A DNA stretch of 11,781 nt from a virus: IMG/VR virus record IMGVR_UViG_3300021400_001206, positions 1 through 11,781 of that record, one strand, 5' to 3'. Position numbers and translations under genes: made by a program. Positions within the stretch are counted from its first letter, which is position 1; each line of letters starts with the position of its first letter. The notes under the pieces were generated by a model. The model ran no database searches and was not told where the DNA came from. It was given only the letters and a program-made list of their open reading frames with translations. Positions 1 through 11,781 of this stretch are shown one piece after another.

Positions 1-26
1 TTAAATACTATGAAAGGAATAAAAAC

Positions 27-233
27 ATGATTAAAGTATTTACTTTAAATAAAAATGGAAAAATAGAATTAACAGAAAAAGAATTAAAATAGTTATTAGA
101 TAATGTATATTGGGAAGGATATAGAGATAATAATAAATCATCTTGGACTTACACAACTCCATTAACTTACCCTTATTATTCAAATATAACAGCAGACTCA
201 ATTACTTTAGGATCAGCTATAAAGGAGGAATGA
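27..233 (+). CDS. Hypothetical protein of 68 aa (if it starts at ATG 27), with one internal TAG at 90-92.
   Basis: ATG at 27 is preceded by aaagga at 13-18, and the ORF ends at TGA 231-233. The frame is also open upstream to the window edge, so this may be the 3' end of a longer gene. The TAG at 90-92 is read through as protein-like sequence (ELTEKELKxLLDNVYWEGYRD). No family recognised. Confidence 0.5.
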
Positions 234-239
234 AATAAA

Positions 240-935
240 ATGAAATTTGAAAATACCGAAGTTTGGGGTTTTGAACATGCTTTAAGAGGTATGAGAAATC
301 CCAAAAATAGTTGGGATAAAAGTGATAGCAATTGGGAATAGCACCCTTATAATCCTATTGGACCTAATGATATGAAATTAGCTAGAGCTCTTATTTAGGG
401 TGGTCCAGAGCATCGTAAATTCTTACGTCAAATTTTTGTATCTGTTGATATTACCGCACCTTTATATTGGTGGAAATAGTTTGACACTTATAAAATTGGC
501 ACAGTCGCTAATAGTACGTCAACTATGCATAAATTAACAAGCAAACCAATCACTCTTGATTGTTTTGAAACAGATGATTTTAATTCAGATTTAGTTTATT
601 ATACTGAACCAAATCCATATTCTGATGTTTATATTGAAATGGAAAATACAACAGGTATGTTATCTGAAATCATTATTGAGCAACTTGAATTTCTTCGTCA
701 AAAATATCTTGAAACAAAAGATAAGAAATATTGGAAATAGCTTGTGCGGTGGCTTCCTTAGGGGTGGCTTCAGACTAGAACTTGGACAGCAAATTATGAA
801 GTCATTCGAACTATTGTTCATCAACGATAGATGCATAAATTAAATTAGTGGAGCGGTTTAGACGATCCATCTAAACCTAATTTTATAAAATGGGCAAAAA
901 CATTACCTTATGCTGATGAATTTATTTTTAATTGA
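240..935 (+). CDS. ThyX-fold (flavin-dependent thymidylate synthase-like) protein of 231 aa with 7 internal TAG codons and a degenerate RHR motif.
   Basis: RBS aaggagg at 222-228, ATG at 240, stop TGA at 933-935. In-frame TAGs lie at 339, 396, 477, 738, 759, 828 and 846, all followed by continuous protein-like sequence. From memory of Thermotoga ThyX, the segments GGPEHRKFLRQIFVSVDITAPLYWWKxFDTYKIGTVANSTS and LVRWLPxGWLQTRTWTANYEVIRTIVHQRxMHKLNxW align with the [41 protein letters not shown] and [36 protein letters not shown] blocks. The catalytic RHR is replaced by TYK. The track ORFs 525..740 and 625..843 are fragments or overlaps of this gene. Confidence 0.55.
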
Positions 936-960
936 AAAATAAAAAATAAAATGTTATAAT
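932..960 (+). promoter_or_regulatory. Sigma70-type promoter: -35 TTGAAA (932-937), 17 bp spacer, extended -10 TGtTATAAT (952-960).
   Basis: Read directly from the sequence. It shares the TGTTATAATATAA motif with four other sites. It would drive the small ORF 1002..1163 and the gene at 1176..1562. Confidence 0.55.
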
Positions 961-1001
961 ATAATTATAAAATGAAAATTATGTTATAGAGGAGATTAAA
1001 A

Positions 1002-1163
1002 ATGAAGCTCGAAGGAAATAGAAAAGAAAAGTTTATACAAATGCTTGAAAAAGAAATCTTTAATGACGAGAGTGGTTTTATAGAGAATTATGAAGAAGAT
1101 TGGTATGATTTAGTAATTTTCTTTGAAGATTTAAAAAATGGTCAAATTGTAATTGCATATTAA
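1002..1163 (+). CDS. Small hypothetical protein (53 aa). It is a paralog of the N-terminal domain of the next gene.
   Basis: RBS gaggag at 989-994, ATG at 1002, TAA at 1161-1163. KEKFIQMLEKEIFNDESGFIENYEEDWYDLVIFFEDLKNG aligns with KERFIEFVNELMEMADVNEWDDEERKDWKDAFDFFEELKNN in the downstream gene. No TAG. Confidence 0.55.
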   Translation: MKLEGNRKEKFIQMLEKEIFNDESGFIENYEEDWYDLVIFFEDLKNGQIVIAY

Positions 1164-1175
1164 GAGGAATAAGAA

Positions 1176-1562
1176 ATGGCTAAGACTAAAAAAGAAAGAT
1201 TTATTGAATTTGTTAATGAACTTATGGAAATGGCAGATGTAAATGAATGGGATGACGAAGAAAGAAAAGATTGGAAAGATGCTTTTGATTTCTTTGAAGA
1301 ACTTAAAAACAATAAAGTAAAAACCGCAAAAGAAATGACTGAAAACGGTGCTAAACTTCTTTCTTGGATGCAAGAGAATAAAGAAAAGATGTCAAATGTT
1401 TTTACGTCTAAAGAAGCCGCAGAAGGACTCTTTACAAGCGGTCGCTCCATTGCAGGAACCATGAGAAAGCTAGTAAATGATGGTTATGTAAAGAAAACTG
1501 GTAAAGACCCTGTCCAGTATTCATTAACTGAAGCTGGAGAAAATTATCAGTTTGACAATTAA
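1176..1562 (+). CDS. Small protein (128 aa) with a C-terminal winged-helix-like DNA-binding domain; a possible early transcriptional regulator.
   Basis: RBS aagagg, ATG at 1176, TAA stop. The C-terminus FTSKEAAEGLFTSGRSIAGTMRKLVNDGYVKKTGKDPVQYSLTEAG has the helix-turn-helix plus wing pattern typical of MarR/PadR-like wHTH domains. The N-terminal domain is paralogous to ORF 1002..1163. Confidence 0.7.
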   Translation: MAKTKKERFIEFVNELMEMADVNEWDDEERKDWKDAFDFFEELKNNKVKTAKEMTENGAKLLSWMQENKEKMSNVFTSKEAAEGLFTSGRSIAGTMRKLVNDGYVKKTGKDPVQYSLTEAGENYQFDN

Positions 1563-1580
1563 AAAAATTTTTATTATAAT
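1552..1580 (+). promoter_or_regulatory. Consensus sigma70 promoter: TTGACA (1552-1557), 17 bp spacer, TATAAT (1575-1580).
   Basis: Perfect -35 and -10 hexamers at optimal spacing, starting within the last codons of gene 1176..1562 and lying upstream of the RBS aaggag of gene 1620. Confidence 0.65.
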
Positions 1581-1619
1581 ATAAAAGTAAAGTTGATTTA
1601 ATTTAAGGAGATAAAATTA

Positions 1620-2621
1620 ATGAAAAAGAACGCAAGATTTATTAACACAGAAAGAATTGAAGGATATGTTTATAGTACAGGTAGTAATTTTAATCAGCTT
1701 TCTGAAAGAACAACAGGAGAGAATTCTAAGCATCCTGGAACAAAATATATTGCGGGAGACCTTGATATTGCTGTAGATGAATCTGGTCTAAATGTAGTGA
1801 CTATTCATTATACATATGTAACACCAACATATGGCAGTGGTCAGGTAAATAATACTTATACAGCTCTTAAAAGAATTATTGATAATCCAGATAAAATTTG
1901 GATTAATGGCGGTAAGGAAAATGCCTTTAAGGTCCAGTGTACTGGAGTTTCTATCGCAATCAATGATTTCATTGGAGCAGATGGAAAATTTGTTGCCGCA
2001 ATTAGAAATGAAGGTGGATTTTGTTCTATCGTAAATGAATTTGGTCCAGAATCAAATAGAAATACTTTCTCTGCTGATATGCTTATTACAAAAGTTACTC
2101 ATATTGATGCAGATCCAGATAAGAATATTGAAAATGATTTCACAACAGTTAGTGGAGCAATCTTTGGATATGGAAAAACAATTCCTGTTCTTCTTCCTGT
2201 TTCATTTACAGTTCGAAGCGAAAAGGGTATGGAATACTTTGAAAATCTTGATGCTACACCTTCAGACCCCGTTTTTACAAAAGTTTGGGGACATGTTAAT
2301 TGTATGACTGTTAAAGTAAAGAAAACTGAAGAGTCAGCTTTTGGTGGTGATTATGTTCAGGAGTCTGAGCGTAAGAGTCGTGAGTACCTTATCACAGGAA
2401 CAGCAAAAGTACCATATGACTTTGGTGATGAAGAAGTTCTTACTGCTAATGATGTAAGCACAATGAATCAGAATCGTCAGATTATGCTTGCAGAGGTTGA
2501 AAGCAGACATAAGGAACGCCAGGCAGAAAAGGCTGCAAATGGAGTAAGCTTTGAAGCTACTACAAAAGCTCCTGCCGCAACAAAAACAGCAGGTGTGCCT
2601 GAAGGTGGATTTGTATTTTAA
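1620..2621 (+). CDS. Hypothetical protein (333 aa). It sits immediately upstream of the Sak4-like ATPase. A possible ssDNA-binding or annealing partner, by position only.
   Basis: Long uninterrupted ORF with RBS aaggag at 1605-1610 and a TAA stop. No TAG. GC content is noticeably higher than in neighbouring genes. The C-terminal tail is low-complexity (ATTKAPAATKTAGVPEGGFVF). No family recognised from sequence. Confidence 0.8.
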   Translation: MKKNARFINTERIEGYVYSTGSNFNQLSERTTGENSKHPGTKYIAGDLDIAVDESGLNVVTIHYTYVTPTYGSGQVNNTYTALKRIIDNPDKIWINGGKENAFKVQCTGVSIAINDFIGADGKFVAAIRNEGGFCSIVNEFGPESNRNTFSADMLITKVTHIDADPDKNIENDFTTVSGAIFGYGKTIPVLLPVSFTVRSEKGMEYFENLDATPSDPVFTKVWGHVNCMTVKVKKTEESAFGGDYVQESERKSREYLITGTAKVPYDFGDEEVLTANDVSTMNQNRQIMLAEVESRHKERQAEKAANGVSFEATTKAPAATKTAGVPEGGFVF

Positions 2622-2637
2622 TGAGAGGTAATAAATA

Positions 2638-3678
2638 ATGGCAGATATTAATATTTTTAACATCTAGCCGCATCAGGTTAGCCGTAATCTAAGAGGATAT
2701 TCAATCTTCTTTTACGGCTAGCCAAAAAGTGGCAAAACTACAACAGCATCTAAGTTTGAAAAGAATCTTCTTTTAGCTTTTGAAAAAGGTTATAACGCAA
2801 TTCCAGGAGTTATGGCACAGCCTATTAATAACTGGGCAGAATTTAGAAAAGTTCTTCGTCAGTTAAAAGACCCAAAAGCTAAAGATATGTTCTATACTAT
2901 CACTATTGATACTTGTGATATTGCATATGATTATTGTACAAAGTATATTTGTGATAACGCCTTGAGACCTGATGGCGGTTATGGTGTAGACAGTATTAGT
3001 GATATTCCTTTTGGAAAAGGATACGGTCTTGTATCAAAAGAATTTGATGAATGTCTTAGATCTATTGTTATGATGGACTACGGTCTAATTCTTATCTCAC
3101 ACGCAACTGATAAAGTTTTTAAAGATGAAGCTGGAAATGAATATAATAAAATCGTTCCAACTCTAGACAAACGAGCCAATAATATTGTTGCACGAATGGC
3201 AGACATTATTGGATACTCAAGAATTGTTACTGATAAAGAAGGTAATAACTTAACAAAACTTTTTATGCGTGGTACACCGAGATATGAAGCTGGTTCTAGA
3301 TTTAAATATACACCAAATTATATTGATTTTTCTTATGATAATCTTGTTTCCGCCATAAGTGATGCTATTGATAAACAAGCACAAGAAGATGGAAAAGAGT
3401 TTTTTACAGATAAGAAAAACAATCTTTATGAAGATACAACTAAAGACCTTAATTTTGATGAACTTATGAAAAATTGTAATGATTTGATTAAGGGAATGAT
3501 TGATAATAATTCTGAAGAAGTGTTTAAAGAGTTTTATCAACCTCGTATTGTTCAAATTACAGATCGTTATTTGGGCAGAGGTCAAAAGATGAGTCAGTGT
3601 TCAAGAGAACAGGTTGAAGCTTTGTCTTTAATTTATGATGATCTTCTCTTACTTTCCAAAGAGCCTGCTTCAGAATGA
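2638..3678 (+). CDS. Sak4-like / AAA_24-family RecA-fold ATPase (phage recombination-associated ATPase), 346 aa, with 2 internal TAG codons.
   Basis: RBS gagagg at 2623-2628, ATG at 2638, TGA at 3676-3678. The N-terminus reads MADINIFNIxPHQVSRNLRGYSIFFYGxPKSGKTTTASKF. The Walker A motif (GxPKSGKT) is intact only if the TAGs at 2665 and 2719 are translated. Downstream motifs ITIDTCD (Walker B-like) and LISHATD resemble AAA_24/Sak4 proteins. The track ORF 2812..3678 is the TAG-truncated fragment and lacks the P-loop. Confidence 0.8.
2676..2723 (+). other. 12-bp stem / 24-nt loop hairpin inside the 5' end of the ATPase CDS. It spans the Walker A coding region and holds the second TAG codon in its 3' arm.
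   Basis: ggttagccgtaa (2676-2687) pairs with ttacggctagcc (2712-2723) with one G-U pair. The first TAG (2665) lies 9 nt upstream of the stem. The pentamer TAGCC occurs three times in 60 nt. Confidence 0.5.
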
Positions 3679-3692
3679 TTATATATTAAAGG

Positions 3693-3731
3693 CTTGTCAA
3701 AGTCCCGTTCTTTTGACAAGTCTTTTTTTTT
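3693..3731 (+). terminator. Rho-independent terminator after the ATPase gene.
   Basis: Stem cttgtcaaag (3693-3702) pairs with cttttgacaag (3710-3720), loop tcccgtt, followed by tcttttttttt (3721-3731). Confidence 0.8.
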
Positions 3732-3741
3732 ATGTTATAAT
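3713..3741 (+). promoter_or_regulatory. Consensus sigma70 promoter: TTGACA (3713-3718, inside the terminator's 3' arm), 17 bp spacer, extended -10 TGtTATAAT (3733-3741).
   Basis: Read directly from the sequence. It drives the zinc-ribbon gene, DnaB and the downstream operon. Confidence 0.7.
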
Positions 3742-3771
3742 ATAATAAGAAATTTTTTAAGGAGATTTTTT

Positions 3772-4287
3772 ATGGCTCATAAAGTAAAATGTTTATATTG
3801 CGGTGAGCAATTTGATCGAGATATAGAACCAACAAAACAAGTCTCCGCACGCAGATACGCTCATTTAAAGTGTTGGGAAGAACATCTTGCAAATATGTCG
3901 CAAGAAGAAAAAGATATTGCAGCATTTTATGATTATACTCGGCAACTATTTGGAGAAGATTATAATTATGTATTAACTAAAAAGTTAGCTGAAAGATATG
4001 TAAAAGAAAATCAATATACATATAGTGGAATGTTAAAAACTCTTAAGTGGTATTATGAAAAAGAAGGCCATTCACTTGATAAAAGTAATGGAAGTATTGG
4101 TATTATTCCTTATATATATAAACAAGCATTAAATTATTATTATGCACTTTATCAAGCTCAATTAATAAATAAAGAGAAGGATATTTCAAATTTTATATTA
4201 CCAAAAGAAAGAACTATAGAAATAGAATCTCCACGAGTGTATGTACGTCCGCCGCATTTGTGGCTAGAAGAAGAGGAGGATGAATGA
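3772..4287 (+). CDS. Zinc-ribbon protein (171 aa), translationally coupled to DnaB. A possible helicase loader or replication-initiation accessory (positional inference).
   Basis: RBS aaggag at 3759-3764, ATG at 3772. The track ORF starts at 3694, but that start lies within the terminator. CLYCGEQF...HLKCWEEH is a C2-HC zinc-binding motif. Stop TGA overlaps the DnaB ATG (ATGA at 4284-4287). Confidence 0.7.
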   Translation: MAHKVKCLYCGEQFDRDIEPTKQVSARRYAHLKCWEEHLANMSQEEKDIAAFYDYTRQLFGEDYNYVLTKKLAERYVKENQYTYSGMLKTLKWYYEKEGHSLDKSNGSIGIIPYIYKQALNYYYALYQAQLINKEKDISNFILPKERTIEIESPRVYVRPPHLWLEEEEDE

Positions 4288-5828
4288 GTTCAAAATATGT
4301 AGATGTATCTGCGAATATGCAGGTAATAGGAGACGTTTTTATAAATCCATCTTTATTAGATTTAGAAGATAAATATAAATTCAATGAACAAGATTTTCCT
4401 CAAGAATTTCATAGAATTTTATTTGGTTCAATTTATAATCTCCATCAATTAGGAGTAAAACAAATTTCAATTGAGGATATAGAAAAATATTTAGAACAAC
4501 GTCCAAAGAAATATGCAATTTATAAAATGAACAAAGGTTCTGAATATTTAGAGAATATTAAACAAATGTGTCAATTAGCGGCATTTGATTATTATTATAA
4601 TCGAATGAAAAAGATGACTCTGTTAAGAATGTATAATAAAACCGTTGGAATGAATTTATCTTGGCTTTATGATCCAGATAATATTTTAGATGTAAAAAAG
4701 AAAGAAGCTCAAGAGACATGGTTTGATAATACCCCCATTAATGAGATTGCTAATCTTATTAATGACAAGATAGAAGAAATAAAATCTAAATATGTTGATA
4801 ACTCAGAAGATGAAATCATTCAAGCTGGTGACGGTGCGTTAGCTTTACTTGAAAGATTAAGAAAAAATCCTGAAGTTGGTTATCCTTTATATGGAAGATT
4901 AGTCAATACCATTCATCGCGGGGCTAGATTAAAAAAATTTTATTTGCGGTCGGCCGCTACTGGTGTCGGAAAAACGCGTTCCATGATTGCAGACGCTTGT
5001 TTTATTGCTTGTAATAAACTTTATAATCTTGAAACTAAACAATGGGAAGATAATGGAACTCGTGAACCAACTGTGTTTATTACAACAGAACAAGAAGAAG
5101 ATGAGATTCAAACTATGATGATGGCGTTTTTAGCTAATGTAAACGAGTCTCATATTCTTGAAAATACGTATGTTGGAGATGAATGGGAACGCGTAACCGA
5201 AGCTGCGGAGATTCTTGAAAAAAGTCCGTTATATATTAAAAAATTACCAGACTTTTCATTACAAGATATTGAAAATACAATTAAAAGCAATATCCGCAAT
5301 CATGGAGTAAGATATGTATTCATGGATTATATTCATTCAAGTATGAAAATTCTTAGTGAGATTAGTTCAAAAGCAGGGGTTAAAGGATTAAGAGAAGATA
5401 ATATTCTTTTTATGATAAGTGTAAGAATTAAAGATTTATGTAATCAATATGGTGTATTTGTAATGTCTGCAACGCAGTTAAATTCTGATTATGTAACAGC
5501 TCAACAGTATGATCAGAATCTTCTTCGTGGCGCTAAAGCTATTGCTGATAAAATAGATTGTGGCATGATTATGTTACAAACAAGTCAAGACGACAGAGAG
5601 TCTTTAAAAAATATTGTTAATTCAATGGGTATCGAAATGCCTGATATAAAAATGTCTGTTTATAAAAATAGACGCGCTAGATATAAAGATATATTACTTT
5701 GGTGTAAATCAGAACGAGGAACTTGTCGTATTAATCCATTATTTGTAACTAATTATAACTATGAATTAATAGATATAGAAGATTTAAAAATTACAGTAAC
5801 ACCTAAAATAGAAGCAAGCGCATTTTAA
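4284..5828 (+). CDS. dnaB: DnaB-family replicative DNA helicase (514 aa).
   Basis: Walker A LRSAATGVGKTRSM, Walker B VFMDYIHS, SATQLN motif, and a DnaB-like N-terminal domain (FHRILFGSIYNL). No internal TAG. TAA stop. Confidence 0.9.
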   Translation: MSSKYVDVSANMQVIGDVFINPSLLDLEDKYKFNEQDFPQEFHRILFGSIYNLHQLGVKQISIEDIEKYLEQRPKKYAIYKMNKGSEYLENIKQMCQLAAFDYYYNRMKKMTLLRMYNKTVGMNLSWLYDPDNILDVKKKEAQETWFDNTPINEIANLINDKIEEIKSKYVDNSEDEIIQAGDGALALLERLRKNPEVGYPLYGRLVNTIHRGARLKKFYLRSAATGVGKTRSMIADACFIACNKLYNLETKQWEDNGTREPTVFITTEQEEDEIQTMMMAFLANVNESHILENTYVGDEWERVTEAAEILEKSPLYIKKLPDFSLQDIENTIKSNIRNHGVRYVFMDYIHSSMKILSEISSKAGVKGLREDNILFMISVRIKDLCNQYGVFVMSATQLNSDYVTAQQYDQNLLRGAKAIADKIDCGMIMLQTSQDDRESLKNIVNSMGIEMPDIKMSVYKNRRARYKDILLWCKSERGTCRINPLFVTNYNYELIDIEDLKITVTPKIEASAF

Positions 5829-5839
5829 GGAGGATATAT

Positions 5840-6052
5840 ATGCAATATGGTAAGTGTTATAAATGTGCCCATAATGGAATTTGCAGAATTTTGATGGCAG
5901 AAGCCATATCTTCATTAGGATAGTTTGTGCGACTTTTTAATAAAGCACAAACCAGAAAAACGGATAGTAAATGTATTTTACAAATAGATTATACTTGTGA
6001 AAATTTTGTAGAAAAGAATAGTAATGAAGATATACTAAATATACAAGAATAA
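5840..6052 (+). CDS. Small Cys-rich (zinc-ribbon-like) protein, 70 aa, with one internal TAG.
   Basis: Strong RBS aaggagg at 5827-5833, ATG at 5840, TAA at 6050-6052. The TAG at 5921 is read through. The product is MQYGKCYKCAHNGIC...KCILQIDYTC with two Cys pairs. An 8-bp hairpin begins at the G of the TAG. Confidence 0.4.
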
Positions 6053-6068
6053 AAGCGAGTACATTTTA

Positions 6069-6239
6069 ATGAAAAAGAAATTTAGAAAACCAAGACCACA
6101 ACCTCCTAAATGGTTCTGGGCTGATAATGATAATTGTTGGAATTGTAAATACAATCATACAAAATGTAATAGTTGTAAAAGATTAAAAATATTTAGAAAA
6201 AAATATAGAGATAAAAAAACAATAAAGGAGAAAAGATGA
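6069..6239 (+). CDS. Small basic zinc-ribbon protein (56 aa), translationally coupled to the kinase-like gene.
   Basis: The product MKKKFRKPRPQPPKWFWADNDNCWNCKYNHTKCNSCKRLK has a CxxC-x7-CxxC motif. Stop TGA at 6237-6239 overlaps ATG 6236 (ATGA). No TAG. Confidence 0.5.
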   Translation: MKKKFRKPRPQPPKWFWADNDNCWNCKYNHTKCNSCKRLKIFRKKYRDKKTIKEKR

Positions 6240-6643
6240 TTATTTGTGGTTTTCCTGGGGTCGGAAAATCTACCTTAGCAAAATTTTCTAATTGGATAGA
6301 TTTAGAAAGCACCCCATTTGAAAAAGATTGGGTTCGTTATGCAAAAGTAGCAAAACATATGAGTGATAATGGATATAATGTTATGGTATCTACTCATCCC
6401 CAGTTGTTAGAACAATTTGAACAAATGGAAGTAAGATATACTGTTGTAGTACCTCCTTTTACTGATGTTTCTATTTATAAAGATAGATATATCAAAAGAG
6501 GAAACAATATTGATTTTACTTCCTTAATTGAAATAAATTGGGATAAATGGATTGGAGATATTATAACAAAATCTTCAGTTAATAAAACTGTTGTAATATT
6601 ACCAAAAAATGGTTGTTTACAAGCCTATATTGAAAAAATATGA
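6236..6643 (+). CDS. P-loop NTPase, small nucleotide/nucleoside kinase-like protein (135 aa).
   Basis: N-terminal Walker A MIICGFPGVGKSTLA. The small size and fold pattern are typical of AAA_17/18 or dNMP-kinase-like proteins. Substrate unknown. Confidence 0.75.
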   Translation: MIICGFPGVGKSTLAKFSNWIDLESTPFEKDWVRYAKVAKHMSDNGYNVMVSTHPQLLEQFEQMEVRYTVVVPPFTDVSIYKDRYIKRGNNIDFTSLIEINWDKWIGDIITKSSVNKTVVILPKNGCLQAYIEKI

Positions 6644-6737
6644 AAATATATAAAGAATTAAAATACTTATGGAGTTAGTTAGGTTTTGTACTATGGTGCG
6701 GGAATTGGAGGAAAGCTGAGGAAACTTGTCAAAAAAT

Positions 6738-6746
6738 TGATATAAT
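6738..6746 (+). promoter_or_regulatory. Possible extended -10 element TGaTATAAT upstream of the primase gene, with no good -35.
   Basis: tgatataat at 6738-6746. The nearest -35-like hexamer, ttgtca at 6726-6731, is only 9 bp away. Weak call. Confidence 0.25.
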
Positions 6747-6804
6747 CGCAAAACAACATCCAATTATAAAATTTTTTGCCATGATATTACATTAAGGAAT
6801 TGAT

Positions 6805-7902
6805 ATGAAATTTAAATATGATAAAGACATTTTAAAAGAAAACTTATCAATAGAAGAAGTATTTGATTTAGTTAGTGAGTTAGGCGGTGAACCAATTATG
6901 GGTAATGGATTATTTACCGCCCGCACTATCTGTCATGGCGGCGATAGTCACAAACTTTATTATTATGAAAATACTCATTTATTTCATTGTTATACAGGAT
7001 GCGGGGACGCATCATTTGATATATATGATTTAGTTTTAAGAGTAAATAAAACTGCTGGAATTGAAAGTTTTTCTCTTTCCAGAGCAATATCTTTTGTAGC
7101 TAGATATTTTGGATATACAGCTGAAATATTTGATTTTGAAGATAATCAAGATGTTAGTGAAGACTGGAAAATTATTAATAATTTTAAAAGAAATAGAGAA
7201 AAATCTCAACCACAAATTATAGAATTAAAAACTTATGATGATAAAATATTAAAATATTTACCTCATCCCCATATCTTACCGTGGGAGAAAGAAGATATAA
7301 CATTTGATATAATGGAATCAAGAGGTATATGTTATAATCCAATAAGCGAAGGAATTGTTATTCCACATTATGATATAGATAATAAATTAATTGGGATTCG
7401 AGAAAGAACTCTTATAAAAGAAAATGAAATATATGGCAAATATCGTCCAGCTATAATTGGTGGCAAGATGTATAACCACCCGCTCGGTTTTTCACTCTAT
7501 AACCTCAACAATAGCAAAAAAGCAATTTCTATATTTCAAAAAGTAATTGTTTTTGAAGGTGAAAAAAGTTGTCTTAAATATGCTTCTTATTTTGGTAAAG
7601 ATTCAGATATTAGTGTAGCATGTTGCGGTAGTAATTTAATTAATTATCAAGTTAAACTACTTTTATCTCTTGGAGTAAAAGAAATTATTATTGCACTTGA
7701 TAAACAGTTTCAAAAAATTGGTGATAACGAATGGCAAAAATGGGTTATTAAATTAAAAACTTTATATAATAAGTATGGTAATTATGTAAATATTAGTTAT
7801 ATGTTTGATAAAGATAATTTGCTTGGATATAAAGATTCGCCAATAGATTGTGGGAAGGATACGTTTTTAGAATTATTTAAAAGGAGAGTTACAATAGAAT
7901 GA
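6805..7902 (+). CDS. DNA primase with CHC2 zinc finger and TOPRIM domain (365 aa).
   Basis: CHGGDSHKLYYYENTHLFHCYTGCG matches the DnaG-type CHC2 zinc-binding signature. VIVFEGEKSCLKYA (TOPRIM glutamate) and IIALDKQ are also present. RBS taaggaa. Stop TGA overlaps the next ATG (ATGA at 7899). Confidence 0.85.
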   Translation: MKFKYDKDILKENLSIEEVFDLVSELGGEPIMGNGLFTARTICHGGDSHKLYYYENTHLFHCYTGCGDASFDIYDLVLRVNKTAGIESFSLSRAISFVARYFGYTAEIFDFEDNQDVSEDWKIINNFKRNREKSQPQIIELKTYDDKILKYLPHPHILPWEKEDITFDIMESRGICYNPISEGIVIPHYDIDNKLIGIRERTLIKENEIYGKYRPAIIGGKMYNHPLGFSLYNLNNSKKAISIFQKVIVFEGEKSCLKYASYFGKDSDISVACCGSNLINYQVKLLLSLGVKEIIIALDKQFQKIGDNEWQKWVIKLKTLYNKYGNYVNISYMFDKDNLLGYKDSPIDCGKDTFLELFKRRVTIE

Positions 7903-8699
7903 ATGCAAATCCGTGGAGACATAAAGAAGATAATAAAATAAAAGCACAAAAACAAATTAAATACATGGATGAGAACTTTGCTAATGAAACTGCGGAGGCC
8001 GTCGCTAATACAGTTATATATACTGGTCCTGTAGATATATGGGATTGGACTAAAAATGGTTTTAATCCAGTCCCCTATTCACAATTACTTGATATGGGTA
8101 CTGTTGATGCGATTTTTCATGTTCGAGAAGTCTTAGGAGAAGATAATAAAGAAGTTAAAGTTGCTGCGCTCAACTTTGCGTCATATAGAAATCCTGGTGG
8201 GAAATTTGTTGATGGTAGTAATGCTCAAGAAGAATGTCTATGTCATGAATCTAATCTTTATAATATTTTAAGAAACTTCACATCATATTATAGAGAAAAT
8301 AATTCTAAGCCAAATAAAAATCTTTATACTGATAGAGCCTTATATTCTCCAGATGTGATTTTTAACAAAGGAAATCATATAGTTAAAGCAGATGTAATTA
8401 CTTGTGCCTCTCCAAATTGGACTGCTGCACGTAAATGGAATGTTTCTCAAGTTGAAAATACTCTTGTATTAGCTCAACGTATTCAGTTTATTAAAGATAT
8501 TGCAGAACTTGAAGCAGTTGATATTCTTATTCTTGGGGCTTGGGGATGTGGAGTATTCGGACAAAATCCAAGAACTGTTGCAAAATTATTTGATTTTATT
8601 TTTAGAGAAAGTGAAATTAAAAATATTGTATATGCAGTTCCTGGAGGATTAAATTCTGATAATTTTAAAGCCTTTGACGAATGTATTAGAAAGAGTTGA
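7899..8699 (+). CDS. Bacterial-type poly(ADP-ribose) glycohydrolase-like macrodomain protein (DUF2263 / TIGR02452 family), 266 aa.
   Basis: ALNFASYRNPGGKFVDGSNAQEECLCHESNLY matches the microbial PARG signature (NFAS...PGG-x8-QEE). LILGAWGCGVFGQNP is the macrodomain diphosphate-binding loop. No TAG. TGA stop. Confidence 0.85.
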   Translation: MNANPWRHKEDNKIKAQKQIKYMDENFANETAEAVANTVIYTGPVDIWDWTKNGFNPVPYSQLLDMGTVDAIFHVREVLGEDNKEVKVAALNFASYRNPGGKFVDGSNAQEECLCHESNLYNILRNFTSYYRENNSKPNKNLYTDRALYSPDVIFNKGNHIVKADVITCASPNWTAARKWNVSQVENTLVLAQRIQFIKDIAELEAVDILILGAWGCGVFGQNPRTVAKLFDFIFRESEIKNIVYAVPGGLNSDNFKAFDECIRKS

Positions 8700-8721
8700 C
8701 TTGACAACTCTTTCTTTTTTT
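8691..8721 (+). terminator. Rho-independent terminator after the PARG-like gene.
   Basis: aagagttg (8691-8698) pairs with caactctt (8705-8712), loop acttga, followed by tctttttttt. Confidence 0.75.
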
Positions 8722-8729
8722 GTTATAAT
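8701..8729 (+). promoter_or_regulatory. Consensus sigma70 promoter: TTGACA (8701-8706, in the terminator loop/stem), 17 bp spacer, extended -10 TGtTATAAT (8721-8729).
   Basis: Read directly from the sequence. It drives the RecJ-like gene. Confidence 0.7.
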
Positions 8730-8768
8730 ATAAAGTAGAAATATTATAAAATTAAAGGAAGAAAATAT

Positions 8769-10571
8769 ATGAAATATGAATTAATAAATAAACCAAATGA
8801 AAACTTTTCAACAATACAACAAATATTATATAATAGAGGAATTGCGAAAGATGAAATTTTACATTATGTAAATCTATCTGATTAGGATATTAATTCCCCA
8901 TTGTCTTTAGGAGAAACAAATCTCAAAAATGGGTTAATGGCTATTATTAATACTGTAAAAGAAAATGCTGATGCTTTAGTAATTGTAGACTGTGATTGTG
9001 ATGGTTACACATCTGCAGCTCTTCTTATTAATTATTTATATAAAATATTTCCCACTTGGGTCACTAATCATTTAGACTGGTACATGCATGATAGTAAGCA
9101 ACATGGGTTAAGTGATTGTATTGATTTTGTATTAGCTCATAATCCAAGGCTTGTGATTTGTCCAGATTCAAGTAGTAATGATTATAGTTATCATAAGACA
9201 TTAGCAGATAAAAATATTCAAGTATTAGTTTTAGATCATCACTTAGCAGATCGTATTAGTGAAAATGCTATTATTATTAATAATCAATTATCAGATTATC
9301 CTAATAAAGAATTATCTGGTGTTGGAGTCGTATGGCAATTTTGTCGATATATAGATAGATTTTTTTCTAATCCAAAAAATTATAAAATATGTAAAATGGC
9401 AGATGAATTTTTAGATTTAGTTGCTCTTGGGAATTGCGGTGATATGATGTCATTACGGTCTTTTGAAACTCGTTATCTAATTACAAAAGGGTTTAAAAAA
9501 GAAAATATTAAAAACCCTTTTATTGATTATATGATTGATAAAAACTCATTTCCTTTATCAAAAGCAGATTATGTATCATCAAATCCTGATATGGGATGCA
9601 CATCTATGGGCGCTGCATTTTTTATTGTACCATTTGTTAATGCTATTACTAGAAGTGGAACGATAGAATAGAAAAACTTACTTTTTAATTCTATGTTAAA
9701 TCATAAAGCTTTTACAGAAGTTATTTCAAACAAGCGTGGGCATAAATTAGGTTAGAAAGAAAAATTAATTTTACAAGCAATTAGAACAGTTACGAATGTT
9801 AAAAATAGACAAACGAGAGCAGAAGATACAGGATTAGATATGTTAGAGAAAATGATTGAAACTAATCATATGCTTAATCATAAAATTCTTTTATTCTTAT
9901 TAGAGCCTAATAAAATTGATCCTGAAATTCGTGGTTTAATTGCAAATAAATTTATGGCAAAATATCAAAGACCTTGTTGTCTATTAACTAAAACTAATAG
10001 AAATGGCAAAGAAACTTATGAAGGCTCTATGCGTGGATATACAAAAACTGGAATTGACAGTTTTAAAGAAGTGCTTGAACAATGCCCAGGAGTTTTATAT
10101 GTAGAAGGACATGATAACGCGGCTGGGCTTGGTATAGAAGCAGATCATGTAAATGATTTTCTTTATAAGATTGATTAGCTTCTTGAAGATGTCTCTGTTG
10201 AACCTATTTATAGAATTGATTATAATTTTAATGAAAAAGAAAACAACAATCAGCGCATTTTAGATATTGCAGATATGAATGACTATTGGGGTCAAGATGT
10301 AGATAGAGCTTATGTAAATATTAATTTTAAAGTTACTGATTCTAATTTTAAAGTTATGAAAAGCAATACTTTAAAATTTAATTTACCTAACGGATTATCT
10401 ATTATTAAATTTAATGGAACTGAAGAAGAAATTACTAGATTTACAACAACAGGGTATCTAGAAGTGAACGCTATTTGTAAATGCAATAAAAATTAGTGGA
10501 ATGGTTGCGTCTATCCGCAACTTATTATGTAGGATTTTGAAATTGTGGATTCTGCTAAATACTACTTTTAA
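8769..10571 (+). CDS. recJ: RecJ-like DHH/DHHA1 phosphoesterase (ssDNA exonuclease family), about 600 aa, with 6 internal TAG codons.
   Basis: ATG at 8769. In-frame TAGs at 8883, 9669, 9753, 10176, 10494 and 10530. True stop TAA at 10569-10571. RecJ N-terminal pattern ILYNRGIAKDEILHYVNLSDxDINSPLSL. DHH motifs IVDCDCDGYTSAALL and VLVLDHHLAD. DHHA1 motif VEGHDNAAGLG lies in the segment after the second and third TAG. The track ORFs 8901..9671, 9840..10178 and 10275..10496 are all in the same frame and are fragments of this one gene. Confidence 0.75.
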
Positions 10572-10601
10572 TGGCTCGGCGCGCAAACACCCGTACCTAG
10601 G

Positions 10602-10657
10602 AAGCAAAAATGCATTTGGATTTTTTTATTTGCATTTTTGCTTTTTGATTTTTTTAT
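10602..10657 (+). terminator. Rho-independent terminator after the RecJ-like gene.
   Basis: 13-bp perfect stem: aagcaaaaatgca (10602-10614) pairs with tgcatttttgctt (10631-10643). 16-nt loop, followed by a T-rich tract to 10657. Confidence 0.75.
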
Positions 10658-10673
10658 AAAAATTTGTTATAAT
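10645..10673 (+). promoter_or_regulatory. Sigma70 promoter: TTGATT (10645-10650), 17 bp spacer, extended -10 TGtTATAAT (10665-10673).
   Basis: Read directly from the sequence. It drives the NADAR gene and the downstream helicase. Confidence 0.6.
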
Positions 10674-10703
10674 ATATATAAATAAAATGTTAGGAGAATA
10701 AAT

Positions 10704-11156
10704 ATGGATATTGGAAGTGGTTCAGGTTATCCTGCAGCCTCATTAAGTAATTTTGCACCGCATCCTTTTATTATAGATGATGTACCTTGTAATTCAATGG
10801 AAGGCTTTCTACAATCTTTAAAATTTAAAAATATTGACATGCAAAAATATGTATGTTCTTTAGTTGGAAAAAGCGCAAAGTATAAAGGAAAAGATAAAAA
10901 ATGGTGGAAAACACAAACTCTATATTGGCAAGGTAAAGAATATAAACGTGATAGTCAGGAATATCAAATTCTTTTAAATAGAGCTTACAATGCGTTATAT
11001 CAAAATGAAGGATTTAGAAAAGCTTTAGAAGCTAGCCGTCCGGCAATCTTATCACACTCAATAGGGAAGAATAATCCTTCAAAAACAGTTTTAACTCAAG
11101 CAGAATTTGTGGGTCGTTTAATGAAGCTAAGAATGGGAAAAAAATTAGATGAATAA
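10704..11156 (+). CDS. NADAR-family (YbiA-like, DUF1768) ADP-ribose/N-glycoside hydrolase, 150 aa.
   Basis: SLSNFAPHPFIIDDVPCNSMEGFLQSLKF matches the YbiA/NADAR signature (SNFA-P...E..Q..KF). RBS taggag. TAA stop. No TAG. Confidence 0.85.
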   Translation: MDIGSGSGYPAASLSNFAPHPFIIDDVPCNSMEGFLQSLKFKNIDMQKYVCSLVGKSAKYKGKDKKWWKTQTLYWQGKEYKRDSQEYQILLNRAYNALYQNEGFRKALEASRPAILSHSIGKNNPSKTVLTQAEFVGRLMKLRMGKKLDE

Positions 11157-11171
11157 TAGAGGTGCATAGAT

Positions 11172-11414
11172 ATGTCAGATGAAAGTTTAAAAATTAATAC
11201 AATAAATGAAAAAAAATTAAAAGGCTATCAATATGATTCTTTAATATATAGATATATTCGAGCTAGAGAGCAAATGGCAGAATATGAATATCTAAGAGAT
11301 AGACAGAGCAATGTCTCTAATCATACTGAATGGACTGTGTATCGGCAAAGAGCGAATAGAGATATAATGCGTTTTGTTCAAATTTTAGATGAAGTGATTG
11401 GAGAGCATGAATAA
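11172..11414 (+). CDS. Hypothetical protein (80 aa).
   Basis: RBS agaggtg, ATG at 11172, TAA at 11412-11414, which overlaps the next start by 1 nt. No family recognised. Confidence 0.6.
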   Translation: MSDESLKINTINEKKLKGYQYDSLIYRYIRAREQMAEYEYLRDRQSNVSNHTEWTVYRQRANRDIMRFVQILDEVIGEHE

Positions 11415-11781
11415 TGATATTAACTAAAAAACAAGAGGAAGGATTAAAAACTGCTGTAGCGCGACATCGGGACGGAGAAAAATATACGGTGATTGCTGGC
11501 TATGCTGGAACTGGTAAAAGTACACTTGTAAGATATATTATTGATGCTCTTAATGTTGAAGAAAGTAGAGTATGTTATTGCGCTTTTACTGGCAAAGCTG
11601 CAGAAGTATTAAAGAAAAAAGGAAATAAAAATGTAGCAACACTTCATCGGTTGCTATATGAACATATTCCGCGACCAGCGGGCGGTTTCTTTAGAAAGCC
11701 GAAACCACTTATTGATTATGATGTAGTTGTAGTTGATGAAGTTTCTATGGCTCCTAAGTCTTTGATGGAGTTACTGTTTAA
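11414..11781 (+). CDS. SF1 RecD/Dda-like DNA helicase (AAA_30-type), N-terminal fragment; it continues past the window end.
   Basis: Walker A IAGYAGTGKSTL and Walker B VVVVDEVSM. ATG at 11414 in frame 2. No stop before the window end. Confidence 0.8.
   Translation, partial: MILTKKQEEGLKTAVARHRDGEKYTVIAGYAGTGKSTLVRYIIDALNVEESRVCYCAFTGKAAEVLKKKGNKNVATLHRLLYEHIPRPAGGFFRKPKPLIDYDVVVVDEVSMAPKSLMELLF

Follow-up and report, generated by a model that had tools for sequence, protein, structure and literature searches.

The window analysed here is a stretch of 11,781 nucleotides (positions 1-11,781 of the virus record IMGVR_UViG_3300021400_001206) from a rumen phage in which the amber triplet TAG is read as a sense codon, and in which genes that carry TAG in frame are interleaved with genes that have none. 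Comparison with relatives makes it probable that the clade to which this phage belongs has come to decode UAG as glutamate by means of a suppressor tRNA that arose from a tRNA-Glu, and that the placement of TAG acts as a per-gene switch: genes for host takeover, putative counter-defence and the replisome would exclude the codon absolutely, and those for nucleases, lysis and most virion proteins would require it. An earlier sequence-only reading of the window had noticed the interleaving, which is real, non-random and kept in the clade, and had ascribed it to a codon-level gate that lets replication and counter-defence proteins be made first. What is new is that the mosaic is resolved to single genes and is seen to be conserved throughout the clade, that genes with and without TAG share one promoter type, and that the codon is assigned to Glu.

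Suppressor-dependent translational control, assigned gene by gene, is the explanation of this distribution towards which we lean, if only slightly. A phage-encoded tRNA with the anticodon CUA, tRNA(CUA), would read TAG, most likely as Glu, and wherever that tRNA is scarce or is outcompeted by host release factor 1 (RF1), ribosomes would halt at the codon. Genes free of TAG would be translated whatever the suppressor state; this set comprises the small genes of host takeover, the PARG and Phage_30_3 genes, RNA-repair enzymes, gyrase, ligase, DnaB, primase, the alpha subunit of DNA polymerase III (PolIII-alpha), the superfamily 1 (SF1) helicase and the most abundant virion proteins. Genes that bear TAG, namely a GIY-YIG intron-endonuclease-like gene with its operon, a RecJ-like exonuclease, a RuvC-like resolvase, the lysis cassette, terminase, portal, tape measure and fibres, would be made only in proportion to suppressor activity, and hence later, in smaller amounts, or both. 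The distribution, its conservation, the shared promoter type, the tRNA of the relatives and the comparative evidence on the meaning of TAG are observed; that expression is delayed, that RF1 competes with the suppressor, and that the phage gains by keeping DNA-cutting and lytic enzymes back are inferred from sequence.

Genes of the window were re-called with TAA and TGA as the sole stops, which gave 18 plus-strand genes, and exact-protein look-ups extended the view of the same genome to 30.2 kb of its contig, ERZ1756080 NODE_862, of 110,397 bp. The relatives, about 60 in number and ~80% identical to the window in nucleotide sequence, are mostly rumen metagenome contigs. The closest large relative in IMG/VR, IMGVR_UViG_3300021256_000064 (hereafter C64; 144 kb, ~91% nucleotide identity to the window), was recovered over ~97 kb, and no near-identical annotated phage was found in INPHARED. 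Evidence on late genes and on tRNA(CUA) is drawn from relatives, not from the window phage itself. Positions given without a contig name are those of the window, on its plus strand.

Genes with and without TAG

A sense reading of TAG is shown by the restoration of conserved domains on read-through and by the lack of any gene that ends in the codon. Read through its six TAGs (8883, 9669, 9753, 10176, 10494 and 10530), the monocistronic RecJ-like gene (8769-10571) encodes a 600-residue exonuclease with DHH, DHHA1 and RecJ_OB domains, and the full AAA_24 domain of a 346-residue Sak4/YorG-like ATPase (2638-3678) is recovered once its two TAGs (2665 and 2719, codons 10 and 28) are read as sense. 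A terminal TAG is found in none of the 31 genes in the 30 kb of the same genome, all of which end in TAA or TGA, and in none of the 43 genes in the early block of the related contig L303. The genes for NrdD, guanylate kinase (Gmk) and the GIY-YIG protein likewise hold TAG in frame. The second TAG of the ATPase (2719-2721) falls within the Walker A motif, which reads G-TAG-PKSGKT; in relatives this column is occupied by GAA or GAG (18 sequences) or by GGT (11).

Elsewhere in the window, TAG occurs in a 68-residue gene (27-233; one, at 90-92), the third gene of a TAG-rich operon that starts upstream of the window, in a 231-residue gene of PHROG 6721 (240-935; seven, at 339, 396, 477, 738, 759, 828 and 846), where it makes up 30 per 1000 codons and 32% of the Glu-type codons, and in a 70-residue gene (5840-6052; one, at 5921). 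Apart from the TAG of a doubtful ORF described below, the last of these is the single TAG of an operon at 3772-8699 that comprises a YorH-like gene, DnaB, the 70-residue gene, a 56-residue gene, a kinase-like gene, primase and PARG; the gene at 6069-6239 is without TAG. Also without it are a 53-residue gene (1002-1163) and a 128-residue winged-helix-turn-helix (wHTH)-like gene, which together span 1002-1562, the 333-residue YorF-like gene (1620-2621; a match to PF27337), and the genes at 10704-11781, namely a Phage_30_3 family gene, an 80-residue gene (11172-11414) and the start of the SF1 helicase. The per-gene counts of the sequence-only reading (one, seven, two, one and six) proved exact on re-calling, with both Sak4-like codons inside the first 30 as it had stated, and each gene that it listed as free of TAG (DnaB, primase, the 333-residue gene, the PARG-like and kinase-like genes, the SF1 helicase, wHTH and others) has a count of zero. 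Two small open reading frames (ORFs) absent from its list hold one TAG each: 972-1163, if the upstream start is used, and a 51-residue ORF at 6640-6795. At two columns of the latter TAG swaps with TGG in relatives, unlike in every other gene, and this ORF is probably not a gene, or else its TAG is a true stop.

The spread of TAG over genes departs from chance. When TAGs were dealt out among complete genes, the window gave p=0.0014 by gene length and p=0.0046 by Glu-type codons, and the 30 kb of the same genome gave p<1e-5 and p=1.5e-5, respectively. The 30.2-kb stretch holds 34 TAGs in 9491 codons; its TAG-free genes amount to 6622 codons, 492 of them GAA or GAG, for which the probability of finding no TAG at the overall TAG share is 2.5e-11. 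These are RNase H, GyrB, GyrA, NAD ligase, PolIII-alpha (1321 residues), SF1 helicase and NrdG, in addition to the TAG-free genes of the window. The TAG-bearing genes are the GIY-YIG nuclease (10), gene 240-935 (7), RecJ (6), NrdD (3), AAA_24 (2), Gmk (2) and a few small genes.

The TAG-richest gene of this block is that of the GIY-YIG protein (L073 7914-8855, ending at window position 30; 32 TAGs per 1000 codons), which passes TIGR01453, the model for group I intron endonucleases. A hydrophobic helix at the N terminus and a lengthy stretch resembling a coiled coil set its product apart from the usual homing endonuclease. With the RuvC-like resolvase (49 per 1000 codons) and RecJ it forms the densest group of non-late genes, and an intron endonuclease of Agate phage is recoded likewise (Borges et al., bioRxiv 10.1101/2021.08.26.457843), as would be expected if TAGs served containment, that is, if they marked mobile nucleases or risky enzymes, silenced by the phage or timing themselves, and the rest of the distribution were a by-product. 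We nevertheless regard such an origin as decidedly unlikely, because NrdD, guanylate kinase, AAA_24 and gene 240-935 carry TAG too, a second GIY-YIG gene in C64 has none, and the strict zero of the replisome genes is left unexplained.

The same division of genes is found across the clade. TAG is absent from DnaB (60 of 60 loci), YorF (52 of 52), wHTH (47 of 47) and the SF1 helicase (16 of 16), and from YorH and primase at 64 of 65 and 39 of 40 loci; every unique ortholog of GyrA, GyrB, ligase, PolIII-alpha (n=12) and the SF1 helicase is without it. The GIY-YIG gene is never at zero (3-17 TAGs across 35 orthologs), nor is RecJ (2-12 across 21 unique orthologs), while the 68-residue gene has one or two at 23 of 26 related loci and the orthologs of gene 240-935 range from none to 10.

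Such constancy might reflect no more than the history of the genes, with TAG-free genes being recent imports from standard-code genomes or slow evolvers, and TAG-rich genes long-standing or fast-evolving ones. In favour of this, relatives differ in a mosaic way in gene content, for example by insertions between DnaB and primase and in the variable gene 240-935, and genome rearrangements were seen as well. However, the TAG load of a gene is unrelated to its divergence: wHTH, ligase and RNA ligase are 65-70% identical, yet without TAG throughout, whereas RecJ and TerL, at 84-86% identity, always carry it. In dozens of lineages the TAG-free genes have kept a count of zero while TAG came and went at 18-33 different columns of their neighbours. 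RecJ, AAA_24, DnaB, primase and PolIII-alpha, moreover, belong to one ancestral syntenic module like the YorF-YorL module of SPbeta, of which YorF, AAA_24, YorH (a weak match to PF26927), DnaB (YorI; the window protein is 40% identical to SPbeta yorI), primase, the YorK-like RecJ and PolIII-alpha are all present in synteny, and the YorF-YorL gene order is also found in PMBT24, a cultured Enterocloster phage with the standard code. Because RecJ is part of this ancestral module, its TAGs are not a sign of recent import. Ancestral synteny and the independence of TAG load from divergence mean that gene history does not explain the pattern, and it is the least likely of the explanations considered here.

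Transcription units, late genes and the suppressor tRNA

The sequence-only reading had treated the genes of the window as a single transcribed module, a description that does not hold. The window has two strong terminators and the five sigma70-type promoters that the same reading had counted, and two TAG-dense units are transcribed separately. Upstream of the 1002-1163 and wHTH genes lies TTGAAA-17-TATAAT with an extended -10 TG (932-960), which has a counterpart in C64, and upstream of the YorF-like gene lies a perfect promoter, TTGACA-17-TATAAT (1552-1580). A third, also perfect (3713-3741), has its -35 element overlapped by a terminator hairpin (3688-3725), and a fourth, perfect and with TG (8701-8729), overlaps a second hairpin (8688-8715), serves RecJ alone and is kept in C64. 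The fifth is weaker (10645-10673; a 10/12 match with TG) and precedes TAG-free genes. In both composite elements (3688-3741 and 8688-8729) the 3' arm of the hairpin contains the -35 hexamer of the next promoter, and the same cassette recurs in an early promoter array of C64.

Over the 30 kb, eight sites match the sigma70 consensus at 11 or more of 12 positions; all are intergenic, 26-225 nt upstream of genes, and recur at the same sites in C64. They precede TAG-free and TAG-dense units alike, the operon of a 95-residue gene, the GIY-YIG gene, the 68-residue gene and gene 240-935 having an 11/12 promoter. The TAG-sparse genes (AAA_24, the 70-residue gene, Gmk and NrdD) are placed within otherwise TAG-free operons; AAA_24, for example, is predicted to be co-transcribed with YorF, from which it is separated by a 16-nt gap. 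Since RecJ and the GIY-YIG operon share the consensus promoter type with TAG-free units, the difference between TAG-rich and TAG-free genes would therefore be set at translation and not by promoter class.

Late genes were seen in relatives. In C64, a 43-kb plus-strand block with the replication genes is flanked by minus-strand late genes, and a second plus-strand block holds tiny, early genes. The contig ends of C64 (L050 and L051) overlap by ~2.5 kb at only 90-96% identity, and C64 probably represents a circular genome whose assembly joined two strain variants. The sequence-only reading had taken an absence of bias between early and late classes as contrary to its gate, and a bias is what was found: TAG density is 1.3 per 1000 codons in the block of tiny genes (13 of 15 free of TAG), 4.7 in the replication block (27 of 43) and 16.9 in the late genes (3 of 27). 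Late counts reach 64 in the tape measure (a gene for 3028 residues, which accounts for a 6.4-kb stretch of L150 that seemed free of genes), 17 in TerL and 10-14 in the fibres. In the early block of L303, by comparison, the 43 genes have no TAG in 3672 codons, 357 of which are GAA or GAG. A lysis cassette in the plus-strand block of C64 carries one TAG in the holin, three in a 228-residue protein and 13 in the lysin, and its neighbours are free of TAG. Thus C64 and L303 show the pattern of recoded structural and lysis genes and standard-code early genes described by Borges et al. in other phages, and the part of the early-first proposal that predicts a rise in TAG from early to late genes stands.

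Several observations nevertheless weigh against a temporal gate. The major capsid protein is TAG-poor across the clade (0.3 per 1000 codons), as are virion proteins of 192, 265 and 335 residues, all of them late, so that freedom from TAG does not equal early expression; these proteins show that avoidance of TAG also tracks abundance, and the early-first proposal is weakened here. (The 335-residue protein, itself free of TAG, was considered as a major tail protein; it has no similarity to the PMBT24 protein and is kept as a virion structural protein.) The TAG-free second GIY-YIG gene of C64 has already been mentioned. Consensus sigma70 matches, which are matches of sequence only, stand before some late genes as well, and the class of promoter may thus be a poor guide to timing. 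A search for tRNA(CUA) found none in the window, the 30-kb stretch or ~100 of 142 kb of C64. Finally, where tRNA(CUA) was found, in two relatives, it lies behind a promoter of early type.

Those two relatives are L305, a related phage contig from a scan of bacterial genome bins, and L333, a 144.5-kb contig from cattle rumen. In each, tRNA(CUA) is part of an array of 18-19 tRNAs encoded on the same strand as the early and replication genes, with TTGATT-17-TATAAT 99-103 nt upstream and a leader that resembles the early promoter array of C64. The sequence-only reading had named a suppressor under the same early type of sigma70 promoter as a finding that would count against its gate, and the two relatives point in that direction. 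The arrangement weakens the case for a long temporal gate, and any delay may be short; a lag from the accumulation of the tRNA and its competition with RF1 would still be compatible with an early-type promoter. Near the replication module, no suppressor tRNA was detected by ARAGORN (>120 loci) or Rfam (147 kb). In close relatives the early block of small genes has one tRNA only, tRNA-Lys(UUU) (L303 12000-12074; L293 6913-6988; L296 9171-9246), directly preceded in L296 by a sigma70-type promoter; it was considered as a reader of TAG and rejected, its anticodon being ordinary and Lys columns seldom carrying TAG. Within the L305 array, ARAGORN also called two tRNA-like elements with irregular anticodon loops, 'gcat' and 'cc' (15012-15087 and 15342-15425), and the array adjoins a nucleotidyltransferase-like gene and a DUF2828/DUF7788 gene, whose protein has >7800 database relatives at E <= 1e-50.

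The early-type promoter, the TAG-poor virion proteins and the existence of intermediate densities (5.8 per 1000 codons in AAA_24 and 3.9 in NrdD) are all in keeping with the main rival explanation, an effect of dosage or efficiency only, in which TAG is slow and leaky to translate and has been purged from bulk or high-fidelity proteins with no temporal programme. It accounts less well for the replisome enzymes, which are not bulk proteins and yet have no TAG in 6622 codons, PolIII-alpha being at zero in all 12 unique orthologs, and for the 43 tiny early genes, of unknown abundance, that are also without TAG. The position of TAG within genes bears on the same question. Across the clade, distinct TAG positions in AAA_24 lie at 3-47% of gene length, and the first fifth of the gene holds 30% of distinct TAG positions in TAG-sparse genes and 19% in TAG-dense genes (p~0.014 against that 19%), a lean towards the N terminus that fits an on/off gate better than an effect on rate. 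The zero in low-copy replisome and tiny early genes, together with this lean, favours a gate, and dosage as the sole cause, while a serious possibility, seems on the whole unlikely.

The amino acid encoded by TAG

Four independent lines of evidence, from clade alignments, standard-code outgroups, a catalytic Glu site and the likeness of tRNA(CUA) to other tRNAs, make Glu and not Gln the most likely reading of TAG in the clade. Within the clade, TAG is found in 217 of 1017 Glu-majority columns as against 44 of 477 Gln-majority columns, with log-likelihoods of -1085 for Glu and -1250 for Gln. The outgroups were the cultured standard-code phages PMBT24 and EF1 and three prophages of isolates. Across 131 TAG sites aligned to them, the partners of TAG were Glu (0.29), Asp (0.10) and Gln (0.07), which is the profile of true Glu sites and not of true Gln sites, and the log-likelihood difference between Glu and Gln was 21.0 (bootstrap 95% interval 5.9-35.8). 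The difference was +72.9 for comparisons at 25-55% identity and +231 at 55-95% identity.

The catalytic site is that of the lysin of C64, in which TAG stands at the catalytic Glu of a GH73 domain, LIGQMCL-TAG-TGYG aligning to AQAALETGWG of FlgJ. Two relatives have GAA at this position, and entry 3K3T has Ala. As for the suppressor itself, tRNA(CUA) is 68-74% identical to tRNA-Glu(UUC) of phage EF1, with an identical anticodon stem, and at most 58% identical to any tRNA-Gln. Its variable loop is of 4 nt, which, with features of Bacillus subtilis tRNAs as the reference, is typical of tRNA-Glu. The assignment concerns all TAG codons of the window, for example those at 339, 477, 738, 2719, 9669, 9753 and 10530, as well as L120 7724, L305 17532-17608 and L333 5468-5543. 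A reading as Gln, as in genetic code 15, has the alignment partners, the GH73 site and the tRNA type all against it, and a mixture of Gln and Glu is not needed, the share of Gln among outgroup partners (0.07) being equal to that at true Glu sites.

The published papers on TAG-recoded phages that were searched assume Gln. We know of no bacterial or phage code in which UAG is Glu, and none is described in those papers. The same assignment exists in the nuclear code of peritrich ciliates (NCBI table 30), a eukaryotic and genome-wide code in which UAA is reassigned too. If TAG is Glu here, annotation pipelines that apply table 15 introduce an incorrect residue, also at catalytic sites, into hundreds of proteins of an abundant group of rumen phages, and amber reassignment in phages is not confined to Gln. 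This would bear on the origin of the code in hosts that possibly make Gln-tRNA indirectly, a trait that we can only suppose.

Related recoding systems and neighbouring features

Recoding in late and lysis genes has been reported in Lak, crAss-like, Agate and other phage clades, with recoding described as 'variable' in replication genes and with a recoded intron endonuclease inside an early gene (Borges et al., bioRxiv 10.1101/2021.08.26.457843). The sequence-only reading had taken recoded stops to be described usually in late lysis and structural genes and not in the replication module; the presence of TAG in replication genes is less unprecedented than it had supposed. The present clade resembles those phages in having in-frame stops that are abundant in structural and lysis genes and missing from early ones, variable use of the codon in replication genes, a suppressor tRNA encoded by the phage (seen here only in relatives), a proposed block on translation until the code changes, and a recoded intron endonuclease in the early region, in this case the GIY-YIG gene. 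It differs in that the mosaic is resolved to single transcription units or genes within one replication block and is conserved in ~60 relatives, that it is coupled to identical sigma70-type promoters, that TAG fits Glu, and that abundant virion proteins are TAG-poor.

A distant relative is found in the phAss-1 or 'Phassvirus' group, which has 25-50% amino acid identity and shared synteny of TerL, portal, major capsid protein, a tape measure of ~3000 residues, PolIII-alpha, RecJ and NrdDG. Like members of this clade, phAss-1 has a genome of ~136-144 kb, recoded TAG and a large tRNA array with tRNA(CUA). Its authors assign TAG to Gln (Babkin et al. 2023, PMC10607447; OQ749652), and a gene-by-gene analysis of TAG has not been reported for it. 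The phAss-1 genome carries three mutually dissimilar tRNA(CUA) genes (OQ749652 62445-62610 and 105747-105820), one of them 88 nt long and two of them directly next to NrdD in the region of nucleotide metabolism.

Dual coding in blocks has been described with Mgcod (Pfennig et al., bioRxiv 10.1101/2022.06.29.495998), and the likeness lies in a single genome of which parts are readable by the standard code and parts require TAG to be sense. Here, in contrast, units of 1-4 genes alternate at least six times within a 43-kb plus-strand block, and a block model would miss most of them. Mosaics of this kind will be wrongly annotated by callers that work on blocks or on whole genomes. A per-gene switch set by the placement of TAG, if real, would form a layer of temporal or dosage control that is independent of promoters and readable from sequence, and it would explain the persistence of recoding.

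With regard to the labels given to genes of the window, the PARG-like assignment is upheld by PF10021 (88.8 bits, cut-off 23.5) and TIGR02452 (184.5 bits, cut-off 50). The gene that had been called NADAR has PF08010, Phage_30_3, as its sole match (185 bits). A role of this gene and of PARG in counter-defence is a suggestion of the sequence-only reading. The ThyX-like label of gene 240-935 is not borne out: the gene has no sequence match in Pfam, NCBIfam or PDB, matches only PHROG 6721, of unknown function, and the stretch corresponding to the RHR...SxR motif reads TYK...STMH.

Further features were seen in the relatives and in the outgroup. In PMBT24, a gene for a SigK-like sigma factor lies between the exonuclease V and PolIII-alpha genes (L335 11341-11985). 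C64 encodes an 833-residue protein (L120 766-3267) that has no PHROG match and adjoins TAG-free RNA-ligase-like and kinase/phosphatase genes; its gene is without TAG in 38 unique orthologs, and homologs at 54-100% identity occur in 48 viral contigs. The early promoter array of C64 (L291 13300-16900) has at least 12 strong promoters, each with an A-rich upstream element, TTGACA, a 17-nt spacer and TGnTATAAT; the promoters often lie within a terminator hairpin, and each is followed by a tiny TAG-free ORF, so that the array looks like an immediate-early region. Beside it, L291 12860-13280 has no ORF and contains a group of ~20-nt direct repeats, imperfect in sequence (CACTTCACCGCGTTAAAGCG and variants), which may serve as an origin, for packaging or for the binding of a regulator.

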